Positions 456 to 60,735 of a stretch of DNA of 64,000 bases are shown one piece after another. Source of the DNA: Octopus vulgaris. Taxonomy: Eukaryota. Both the position numbers and the translations under genes were made by a program. The stretch lies in the NCBI GenBank assembly GCA_951406725.2, contig OX597815.1, forward strand, positions 79,546,001 through 79,610,000. The letters run 5' to 3'. Position 1 is the stretch's first letter. Each line of letters begins with the position of its first letter. The notes under the pieces were generated by a model. The model ran no database searches and was not told the DNA's origin. It worked only from the letters and a program-made list of their open reading frames with translations.

Positions 456-661
456 CATACGTACATACATACATACATACATACATACATACATACATAC
501 ATACATACATAAACAAAACATATGTATATACACTTTATATTTCATACTTTTTTCCTCTTTTCTTTTTCTCGCTCCCCCTCTTTCACATTTTTTGCCGTAC
601 ACATTTGTTTGCTTTCTTACAAAAAATCTAATGCCCTTAGCTAAGACTTTTTTTGCGAGTA

Positions 662-736
662 ACCAGATCGAACAGTCTCAAGTGTAACTGCCCGAAACTG
701 TAAGGACATCTGGTAACTTGACTGAGGAAAGAGGGC
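662..736 (+). ncRNA. Predicted hammerhead ribozyme, non-circularly permuted strand order
   Basis: acaGUC (672-677); stem I tcaagt 678-683/acttga 716-721; gccc-GAAA-ctgt 690-701; CUGAGGA 722-728; gggc 733-736; outer helix accagat/atctggt. Confidence 0.75.
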
Positions 737-22639: not shown

Positions 22640-23567
22640 CTGCGTGGTATCAAAAAGTACCCGGACTAGTTCTGTAGCTCACCAACAGATGGCAGCATAC
22701 GGTTGCGTGCGCAATGAGAGCTAGCAGTGACCTTCATGAGGCAGTGTGCCGAGTGACATCTCTGTGTCTACTTCGCAAGTTTGGAAGTTTGTGTTTTTGT
22801 GATGACGTGTATGCTGTGGTCACGTGTATGCTGTGGTCGCGTGTATGCTGTGGTCACGTGTATGCTGTGGTCACGTGTATGCTGTGATCACGCGTATGAG
22901 ATTTTTGTTACGGACAGGAAGCTGGAGAACGGTGCGAACGTGGAATTTTGCGTTAAACTTGGGAAGTCTGATACAGGAGACATTGAGCGTGCTTCGGCAA
23001 TCTTACGGCGACGAGGCAATGGGTCATGCGCAATGTTTCGAGTGGTACGGGCGCTTCAAAAATGGAAGAACGTCTCTGGAAGAAGATGACCGATGGAAGA
23101 CCTTCTACGAGTGTCACCCACGGAAATGTGGAGAAATTTCATCAACTTGTGCATGAGCATTGTTGGAGGACAATCAAAGATATTGCTGATGTTGTTAGTC
23201 TATCGCATGGGTCCGTGCAGGCAATCCTAACGCCTGAATTCTTCACGACGACAATGCAAACAGTTACTACGCTCTCCTCGCCCTATTCGCCATATTTAGC
23301 ATATACGGACTTCCATCTTTTTCTCAAGATGAAAATACAGCTCAAAGGTCCGCCGTTTTAACACCGCTGTCGAGATTAAGAGCGAATTTCAGCAGGTTCC
23401 CGACTTGCTTACCGAAAACGATTTTCAGGCCAGATTCCAAAAGTAGCAGGAGATCGGTGTGTTGCAGCGTAAGGTGACTATTTCTAAGGAGATGATATAA
23501 AAACTTAGGTAAATAAGTTATCTTTTATTAAACATAGCTAATCCTAGAACTCTTTGATACCACCTCG
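22640..23567 (+). mobile_element. Internally deleted mariner-like element
   Basis: TIRs gtggtatcaaaaagtac / gaactctttgataccacctcg-TA; NVEFCVKLGKS...CFEWYGRFKNGRTSLEED; PYSPYLAYTDFHLF; internal tandem cacgtgtatgctgtggt repeats. Confidence 0.9.
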
Positions 23568-56239: not shown

Positions 56240-56798
56240 CAAGGGAAAATTAGCTGGTGATGCTGCAGGAATTTGCTGTGCCACAAATTCAGACGAGGAG
56301 TGATCTTTCTAATGCCATTTTTCAACAAGACGCAGCCCCTCCCCACTTTGCCAGGTTAGTGAGAGGTTTCCTGAACATCAAGTTCCCTGACCGATGGATC
56401 GGTCGAAGTGGTCCTCTGGGATGGGCTCCGCGCTCCCCTGACCTCACACCCTGTGGTTTTTTTCTGTGGGGCTATATCAAAAGCAAGGTATATGCCACTA
56501 AACCCCGTGACTTGTTACAGTTTGAAGAAAGAATCTGCAAGGCCTGCAGCGAAGTCGGGGAAGTGATGCTGCAAAATGTCGGAGAGGCCGGCATCCGAAG
56601 GTGTCTTAAGGTTGTCGAAAATGGATGCGCTCATGCGAAGGTATACAGCTAGTCCTCTAGGCAGTAGAACGTGACGCAAGTCTAACAAGTAAAACAGCAA
56701 TGATTCCTTTTTTGATACTAAGAATATGAATAAACTCAGTTTCTTATATAATTTTTAGGAATTTATTAAAAGTGTATAGTGACTTCTGGGACACCCTG
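56240..56798 (+). mobile_element. DD41D (rosa/VS-type) transposon 3' fragment
   Basis: FQQDAAPPH...WAPRSPDLTPCGFFLWGYIK with 41 residues between the D and the mutated third position; terminus gggacaccctg-TA. Confidence 0.85.
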
Positions 56799-58072: not shown

Positions 58073-58129
58073 AGGAGCTTCCTGATGATTTCTTTTGAAT
58101 GAAACAGTTCTAGTCCTGTAGAAGCTCCT
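58073..58129 (+). ncRNA. Predicted type I hammerhead ribozyme inside a 131-bp palindrome
   Basis: aggagcttc-CUGAUGA-t ttc tttt gaa t-GAAAcag ttctagtc ctGUA-gaagctcct. Confidence 0.75.
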
Positions 58130-58191
58130 TCTATAAAATAAATATATATATGAAACTCCTTCATGCCCAAGGTACCATAAAAACCCCGAAC

Positions 58192-58496: not shown

Positions 58497-58911
58497 ATAT
58501 ATTACTCAAAGGAATTCCAACTCTGTTTGTTATGTTTTATTTACATTCTTATATTAATATAGGTTATAGAATATAGAATATATAGTAAGAAAGAAATGAA
58601 ATGAAGTATTGATTGTCTTATTGAACAAATGAAATATTAAATGTCTATTCTCATTGAACTAGTATACTTTCTTGCATTTAAGCATTCATCAGGTTCAGAT
58701 TGTAACAGGAACGCTTCGACTGAACGCACAGTCTATTCAATGAGAATAGATATTTAATATTTAATTTTCAATATTTCATTTGTTCAATAAGTCAATCAAT
58801 ACTTCATTTCATTTCTTTCTTACTATATATTCTATATTCTATATCCTATATTAATATTATAAGAATATAAACAAAACATAAAAACAGACAGAGTTAGAAT
58901 TCCTTTGAGTA

Positions 58912-59687: not shown

Positions 59688-59689
<2 letters not shown>

Positions 59690-60468
59690 CATATATTTTA
59701 TTTATTACACTATTGTATGACTGAGCGCCTTCGTGTCGATTCGATTCGTTTGGTTTCGTTTCGTTTCTTCTTTTTCTCTAAGCTGGTTTTTATATATAAT
59801 TATGACGCGAAACTCTATAACTCCTTCTTCTCTCTTTCTTTCACCCTTTTTGCTTCCTTCCTCTCTATCTCTCTCTCTCTCACTCCTCATCTCTCTCACA
59901 GCCGGGTCTACGAACTTCCTTTCGCCGATGGCCTTATTCAAGTAAACATGTTTCTTCCTGCGCTCGTGAAAAAATTTTTTTCCTCGTCTAGGCTTATAGG
60001 CCCTCTTTATTTGTTTTCCTGTCCTGTTTCTATTCTTTCTTGTACTGTATTTTTTGTAATTGTATTTTTATTTTGTATTTGTTTTTATTGTATTGTTTTT
60101 ACGTCCTGTTTTTGTCACATTTTTCCCTTGTTTTTACCCCCTGCAAAGGAATTTTATTTAATTCTTTCGCAGGAAGGATTAGTTCGACGAGACGTGTTCT
60201 GTCCTCACCTTCGAAACACGCTGGAGTTGAACTAGGGACAGCTGATGAAGGGGATTTTTCCTTGTGTAGTTGTCTTATACTCTGTTTTTTCGTTGTTAAA
60301 AAAATGATCCGTTCCATGCTGTTTTTACGTTTTCGTTTCTCATTGAGTTCTACGTCTATTTGTGATGTCCTGTACACACGTATATATATTTATATATGCA
60401 TGTATATATACATGTAGATGTAGGTACGTACATATATGTTTGTATGTATGCATATATTTTATTTATTA

Positions 60469-60474
<6 letters not shown>
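59688..60474 (+). mobile_element. Non-coding 761-bp unit with 26-bp terminal direct repeat (pLTR/retrozyme-like)
   Basis: tgcatatattttatttattacactat at 59688-59713 and 60449-60474; embedded in (TA)n; contains a predicted ribozyme. Confidence 0.65.
60180..60253 (+). ncRNA. Predicted hammerhead ribozyme, non-circularly permuted strand order
   Basis: cgtGUU 60193-60198; stem I ctgtcc/ggacag; ccttc-GAAA-cacg 60208-60220; CUGAUGA 60242-60248; agggg; outer helix tagttcgac/gttgaacta. Confidence 0.75.
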
Positions 60475-60501
<27 letters not shown>

Positions 60502-60503
<2 letters not shown>

Positions 60504-60735
60504 GGCGCGTGGCTTAGTGGTTAGGGCATTCGGCTCACGATTGTAAGGTCGTGAGTTCGATTCCCGGCGACGCATTGTGTCCTTAAGCAAGAAACTTTAT
60601 TTCAAGCTGCTCCAGTCCACTCAGCTGGCAAAAATGAGTTGTACCTGTATTTCTGTGTTACGCTGAATCTCCACGTTAATTTCACGAGCAGGCTGTTCCG
60701 TTGATCGTATCAGTTAGGACCCTCGTCGTCGTAAT
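60502..60735 (+). mobile_element. tRNA-derived SINE family C
   Basis: A box tggcttagtggttagg, B box gagttcgattccc; 3' part related to 7035-7215. Confidence 0.85.

Follow-up and report, generated by a model that had tools for sequence, protein, structure and literature searches.

The window analysed here, a 64,000-nt stretch of the Octopus vulgaris genome, contains at 60137-60253 (+) a knotted hammerhead motif of six helices that is predicted to be self-cleaving, with a core likely open between A9 and G10.1, where two helices would clamp it, and that lies in a Penelope-like repeat likely copied by a Naiad-type enzyme (Table 1). The original prediction, made from the letters of the window, had proposed a rearranged hammerhead at 60180..60253 and another of the same topology at 662-736. 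Stem I, stem III, the outer helix, CUGAUGA, GAAA and the GUU are all present in the window sequence where it had placed them, the strand order of the two copies matches, and the predicted cut after U60198 agrees with the layout; the extent was too short, since the motif begins about 45 nt further 5' and comprises six helices. The site-GAAA-CUGAnGA order as such has already been published (Eckert 2023), a precedent that the prediction did not name.

Table 1. Features of the predicted ribozyme, its repeat unit and the second copy (window coordinates)
Feature	Position	Strand	Remarks
Family-A repeat unit, non-coding, Penelope-like	59689..60473	+	flanked by (TA)n
P4, 5' strand cccc (cccct in most copies)	60137..60140	+	partner is the tail after CUGAUGA
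P5 hairpin, ctgc/gcag and aaggaatt/aattcttt	60141..60172	+	ends directly before G10.1; pair probability 0.97-0.98
Stem II, 10.x strand gaagg; G10.1 = 60173	60173..60177	+	5 Watson-Crick pairs with 60208-12
Outer helix P0, 5' strand	60179..60188	+	pairs with 60226-35
gaga, non-bulged side of kink-turn-like loop, irregular in family A	60189..60192	+	from the sequence and the general kink-turn consensus
Stem III, 16.x strand cgtg, with U16.1 (60197) and U17 (60198)	60193..60198	+	predicted cut 3' of 60198
Stem I, 1.x strand ctgtcc, with 3-nt linker tca	60199..60207	+	
Stem II, 11.x strand ccttc, with GAAA (60213-16) and stem III 15.x strand cacg	60208..60220	+	
ctg bulge and GA, then P0 3' strand	60221..60235	+	
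Stem I, 2.x strand ggacag, with CUGAUGA (A9 = 60248)	60236..60248	+	
P4, 3' strand agggg	60249..60253	+	stem II strand of the original prediction
Family-B copy, same six-helix order	611..736	+	P4 611-618/729-736, GUC site 675-677, P0, III, I

The strands follow one another in the order P4-P5-II-P0-III-(cut)-I-II'-GAAA-III'-P0'-I'-CUGANGA-P4', and the hammerhead core is complete, with CUGANGA at 60242-48, GAAA at 60213-16 and U16.1-H17 at 60197-98, H17 (60198) closing a predicted GUU cleavage triplet. Stem I consists of six Watson-Crick pairs (60199-204/60236-41) and stem III of four (60193-96/60217-20), while P0 has 10 bp (60179-88/60226-35; eight Watson-Crick and two G-U), starts 1 nt after the 10.x strand and runs without a gap (0 nt) into stem I. 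The R10.1-Y11.1 pair below G12 is supplied by the upstream strand, although the G-C at this base follows from the search pattern and is not independent of it. The minimum-energy fold contains P5, P0 and III, on which stems I and II would form as pseudoknots. P4 has a pair probability of 0.17 in this copy, which lacks one P4 base (at 60140) that most relatives have; its first P0 pair (60179) is U-G where relatives often have C-G, and its kink-turn-like loop reads gaga rather than gagt at 60192. In the family-B copy, stem II (657-661/689-693) is worn to three Watson-Crick pairs and one G-U, and the kink-turn motif is regular.

Rfam gave no ribozyme match at this locus (four weak non-ribozyme matches) and none among the 150 matches listed of 225 over the whole window, the listed ones being microsatellite hits to miRNA models plus one plastid model. 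A strict descriptor with stem II directly after A9 had no match in the window because an A faces a C at the base of the stem II originally proposed; a descriptor with stem II relaxed post hoc, after the strict version had failed, gave two matches of the site-GAAA-CUGANGA order, whereas among 200 block-wise dinucleotide shuffles one match occurred in three and two in none. The same relaxed descriptor also picked out two matches of the classic type I order, at ~58085-58150 (+) and ~58600-58690 (-), which are probably worn Penelope-type hammerheads. One could regard the motif as a chance match inside a repeat, given this post hoc relaxation and a 74-nt fold energy no better than that of shuffled sequences (z 0.50), but minimum-energy folding of 74-101 nt is uninformative for a knotted fold, and genome-wide a pattern without any pairing rule had 2175 matches against 4 for the reversed control. 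A looser pattern, which includes these and revealed further families, had 4527 against 31. Together with the compensatory changes between families and phyla, these counts make chance extremely improbable, and the earlier argument for a selected structure holds. The claim of two independent instances needs rewording: the copies at 60180 and 662 represent two lineages rather than two unique loci, because they are members of two large repeat families.

One departure from the original prediction concerns stem II, which had been drawn between agggg and ccttc. Complementarity exists there, but it is weak (0.0 or -1.3 kcal/mol, compared with -4.6 kcal/mol for the upstream gaagg). With stems I and III as the sole criterion, we gathered 91 distinct copies in loci L001-L173, overly worn ones being dropped uncounted, and a helix of at least four Watson-Crick pairs with the strand preceding GAAA was found upstream in 66/91, downstream in 11/91 and in an equal-size control window in 4/91. 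The upstream offset is nearly fixed within each family (in family A, 28/32 copies have the partner at offset 23-25 or in a chance register), and the upstream strand is also carried by families that came to light later through a pattern in which it had no part. Stems I, II and III vary in sequence across 11 intact representatives of different lineages, picked by hand, yet stay paired in 10 or 11 of 11 per column, with 2-5 pair types per column in stems I and III; this covariation table leans towards the model because the stem II register was chosen as the best of 26, and copies of one family are not independent. From the sequences, then, the partner of ccttc is most likely gaagg at 60173-77, and agggg most likely closes a further helix, P4, beside the hairpin that ends at G10.1; an upstream stem II and P4 beside P5 would therefore leave the backbone opened between A9 and G10.1.

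Alternatively, the motif could be an ordinary type-SGC hammerhead that builds its active stem II from the sequence following CUGAUGA (gggg/cuuc, after one extra A), gaagg, P4 and P5 then serving as an off-switch. Such a classic downstream stem, with two G-U pairs, is possible in 32/32 family-A copies, where this register gives at least three pairs; in some copies of families B, D and F a match of 3-6 bp persists 5 nt beyond A9, and one extra base also follows A9 in SGC-1. However, the downstream register is possible in only 4/59 copies outside family A, and the Naiads of the corals, ctenophore, hydrozoan, box jelly and acanthocephalan do not have it; its 0.0 kcal/mol stands against -4.6 for the upstream partner, and agggg has a Watson-Crick partner of its own in P4, so we consider this alternative quite unlikely and retain the upstream stem II. 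A family F copy at L123:4940-5060 has the stem II partner twice, upstream and again 5 nt after A9, and behind the downstream one the stem I strand is repeated as well; this doubling is possibly a switch or a relic of the ancestral order.

P4 and P5 were predicted, adjacent to each other, in 54/91 copies, compared with 91/1820 shuffled leaders and 2/91 shifted windows. They are most regular in families A (28/32) and D (16/19), and few copies passed this strict test in family B (7/18), in the Naiad-type family C (2/14) or in family I (0/4). P5 ends within 2 nt of G10.1 in all 32 family-A copies. P4 is cccc/gggg in the copy at 60137 and cccct/agggg in most others. In a leader-tail duplex test, a leader of 35 nt proved too short and family A alone gave a signal (mean z -0.42 overall); 60 nt were used instead. 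The loop between stem III and P0 resembles a kink-turn, in which a 3-nt bulge is followed by tandem G-A/A-G pairs between two helices: families B and C fit regularly, family A has two extra bases, and in the remaining families the kink-turn is not informative, as their search pattern demands it. The Naiads of the corals, ctenophore, hydrozoan and squid lack it.

The host repeat of the copy at 60137 is a unit of ~760-785 nt with a 24-nt end redundancy (59689-59712/60450-60473), its period being 761 here and 785 in a tandem locus of two units (L019). Family A is young, as 40 copies scored among 1725 candidates are 98-100% identical, and its exact core pattern has 598 matches in the genome against 0 in the control; the copy at 662-736 belongs to the older family B. 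Among 30 family-A loci, 24 are 5'-truncated, 8 have an inverted piece and 13 carry a microsatellite at the 5' end, and an extra tandem piece was found in 25, some of which may be microsatellite matches. Family A thus has the 5' truncation, partial tandems, inverted copies and (TA)n targets typical of Penelope-type elements. It has no credible reading frame, and in particular none encoding GIY-YIG and reverse transcriptase (RT). In family D, five tandem units about 723 nt apart share 99% identity, each with an intact predicted ribozyme; this family is very young (loci L128, G000:C1:79497000-79506900, and L137). No RT gene tied to families A, B or D-I was found in 18 + 12 longer loci, RT-like frames near L123 being taken as unrelated neighbours, and no DNA likeness of families A and B to family C was evident outside other repeats, in hits that were not inspected singly.

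Several other repeats lie nearby. Inverted pairs of another repeat flank the family-A unit (59389-59482/61070-61164, 88%; 59242-59386/59480-59647, 81%), and a dispersed repeat with matches in L012, L017, L022 and L041 follows it directly at 60500-60735; from its tRNA-like head we take the latter to be a SINE, and ARAGORN calls no tRNA in it. Short frames at 56254-56652 and 22987-23361 resemble pieces of Tc1/mariner-type transposases.

The 5' ends of genomic copies bear on whether the RNA is cut. A 26-base anchor located 146 nt downstream of the site has 872 matches; in a map built from the first 90 of these, 20 of the 70 copies reaching +20 have their 5' end in the interval from +20 to -1 relative to the predicted cut, where 3.0 were expected (p about 1e-11), at a background of 0.002 ends per nt on both sides and for a 22-nt interval that was picked after the 5' ends were seen. 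Of these 20 ends, only 4 lie no more than 1 nt from the cut, and inversion junctions account for at least 2. The excess stops at the cut, the next end lying at -17, and in the same map ends are not enriched at the P5 hairpin or the fold's 3' edge; an apparent rise of ends beyond -150 marks the limit of the alignment and was left out. A partly overlapping sample agrees: in 14/100 copies the first base lies in the stretch from the cut to ccttc or 1-2 nt past it, and in 0/100 does it lie 14-22 nt upstream of ccttc. The other 50 of the 70 copies continue past the site, so that uncut or re-joined templates also exist. We regard the pile-up as a hint, a fossil sign of cutting in vivo.

One could instead envision a hammerhead-derived fold that does not cut, or cuts only as a dimer or with a protein, and that has been kept for recognition by a retroelement protein, the truncations reflecting stalling of the RT in the knot. 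The read-through in 50/70 copies fits this view, as does the finding that eight of nine Xenopus retrozyme dimers were uncut in vitro (bioRxiv 10.64898/2026.07.22.740005). Stalling in the knot sits poorly with an excess that ends at the cut and spares both the P5 hairpin and the 3' fold edge, and loss of cutting sits poorly with the retention of all core bases and of the NUH site across families; we judge this explanation rather unlikely and continue to favour a cleaving RNA.

The fold is not confined to the non-coding families. Naiads are Penelope-like elements that insert at (TA)n and are reported to have no canonical hammerhead, with an 'HHR_half_core' flagged in 8 families (Craig et al. 2021, PMC8557442). 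By eye, in the last ~600 nt of 39 of the 54 consensi listed, 10 end in the split six-helix fold, of which about seven are independent: Bfor, 3_Chem, Amil, Aacu, Anas, 2_Movir, Plae, Obim, Ovul and Esco. They come from a ctenophore, a hydrozoan, corals, a box jelly, an acanthocephalan and cephalopods, and their sequences appear unrelated by eye; the weak points in these consensi are a stem I of only 2 bp in Bfor, a stem II of 4/5 in Esco and a short P4 in Obim and Ovul. Seven nematode Naiads in the same set (Parc, 1-3_Nbra, Hcon, Hpol and Asuum; File S5 of PMC8557442) end in a type-CSG hammerhead with an intact block C, again by eye, and in the other 22 of the 39 ends, no hammerhead, split or CSG, was seen by eye in the part examined. 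A different conserved 3' motif, roughly gcgggtg ... gcagg ... gcttac ... acacctg, is present in Naiad_Pmar, 1/2_Skow, 1/2_Pfla and 1/2_Chem (likewise in File S5), which have no hammerhead in the part of the consensi in view, and several bivalve Naiads there share a second motif; both are possibly other structured RNAs.

The motif of Naiad_Obim and Naiad_Ovul is that of family C in the present genome (331 matches against 0 in the control). Some family-C copies have broken RT-like pieces upstream on the same strand, one of five such pieces matching RVT_1 at E 0.003, below the cut-off. Family A has in common with Naiads (TA)n targets, 5' truncation, partial tandems and inverted copies, and differs from them in its length of 760-785 nt and in being without an endonuclease-reverse transcriptase (EN-RT) reading frame. 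Its anatomy and the shared fold make a Naiad-type enzyme the likely agent of its copying; family A itself would be no more than a non-autonomous passenger.

The closest known relative is the type-SGC hammerhead. According to Eckert et al. 2023 (PMC10085705), this is a non-circular permutation, shown to cleave and found only in metatranscriptomes, not in genomes of known organisms; those authors took the A9-G10.1 link as fixed. HRIMA-1 and its variants share with the octopus motif the order site-GAAA-CUGAnGA, all core bases and a helix that connects stems I and II at their far ends, and in the SGC-1 oligos given there, by eye, the junction is the same, with a tca linker, a single base between stem II and the joining helix, and the extra base after A9. 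In type SGC, CUGAnGA is followed by its own stem II strand and the RNA is open between the joining helix and stem III, whereas in the octopus motif that end is closed, the chain is likely open at A9/G10.1, and P4 and P5 are added. Because an unbroken block C (a stem II strand 0-2 nt after CUGAnGA) is most likely lacking, the octopus motif was not filed as type SGC; joining the ends of SGC-1 and reopening it at A9/G10.1 gives, by eye and from the same oligos, the octopus order. Type CSG, known to Eckert 2023 (PMC10085705) from only two metagenomic sequences, is a third opening of the same closed helix ring but has an intact block C and neither P4 nor P5.

Non-LTR retrozymes likewise consist of tandem units that encode no protein and contain a single hammerhead apiece (Cervera and de la Pena 2020, PMC7229834), and they have been proposed to derive from Penelope-like ends (PMC7229834; bioRxiv 10.64898/2026.07.22.740005). 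They carry type I hammerheads, in contrast to the site-GAAA-CUGANGA order found here, are mostly 150-450 nt long (51-972 in vertebrates) and have circular RNA (PMC7229834). For the octopus repeat, the reads consulted were contigs of four runs, three of them tentatively taken as RNA, and show neither ends nor circles. The nearest precedent for a disturbed A9/G10.1 step in the sources at hand is the CChMVd(+) viroid hammerhead, which tolerates an extra A10 there (PMC3705267), a single inserted base as opposed to a chain break bridged by two helices. In the literature searched, which leaves aside Weinberg 2015 (variants, additional helices), we found no hammerhead split at A9/G10.1 and no Naiad hammerhead, and the consulted parts of Perreault 2011, Forgia 2023 and Zheludev 2024 contain no A9/G10.1-split form.

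The RNA might work as follows. P4, P5, P0 and III would form a nested scaffold, and the loop of stem III would carry strands of I and II; by pairing with the unpaired segments next to P0, these strands would make two pseudoknots. P4 and P5 would abut, so that A9, entering P4, meets G10.1, leaving P5, and P0 would take the place of the loop I-loop II contact. Cleavage after U60198 would define where the template begins on its 5' side; reverse transcription, entering at the 3' end, would run off near the cut end, yielding the pile-up of truncations, and read-through of uncut or re-joined RNA would yield tandem copies. Tandem or read-through transcripts could thus be trimmed to unit length and copied into (TA)n by a Naiad-type EN-RT, and circular intermediates are possible by likeness to type I retrozymes. 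On balance, we favour the broader proposal that the motif is a seventh active permutation of the hammerhead, its A9/G10.1 break re-closed by a four-way junction that two extra helices form, that it is the missing ribozyme of Naiads in at least four phyla, that it cuts in vivo, and that it forms one ring with types SGC and CSG, opened at three points.

If this is true, a form that breaks the core would be added to the six permutations thought possible for the hammerhead, and non-circular hammerheads would be present in animal genomes in thousands of copies. It would also explain why Naiads seem to lack the ribozyme carried by other Penelope-like elements, an apparent absence that had served as an argument for the dispensability of the ribozyme. 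With the pile-up of 5' ends, moreover, genome sequences alone would suffice to test what cutting contributes to Penelope-type copying.
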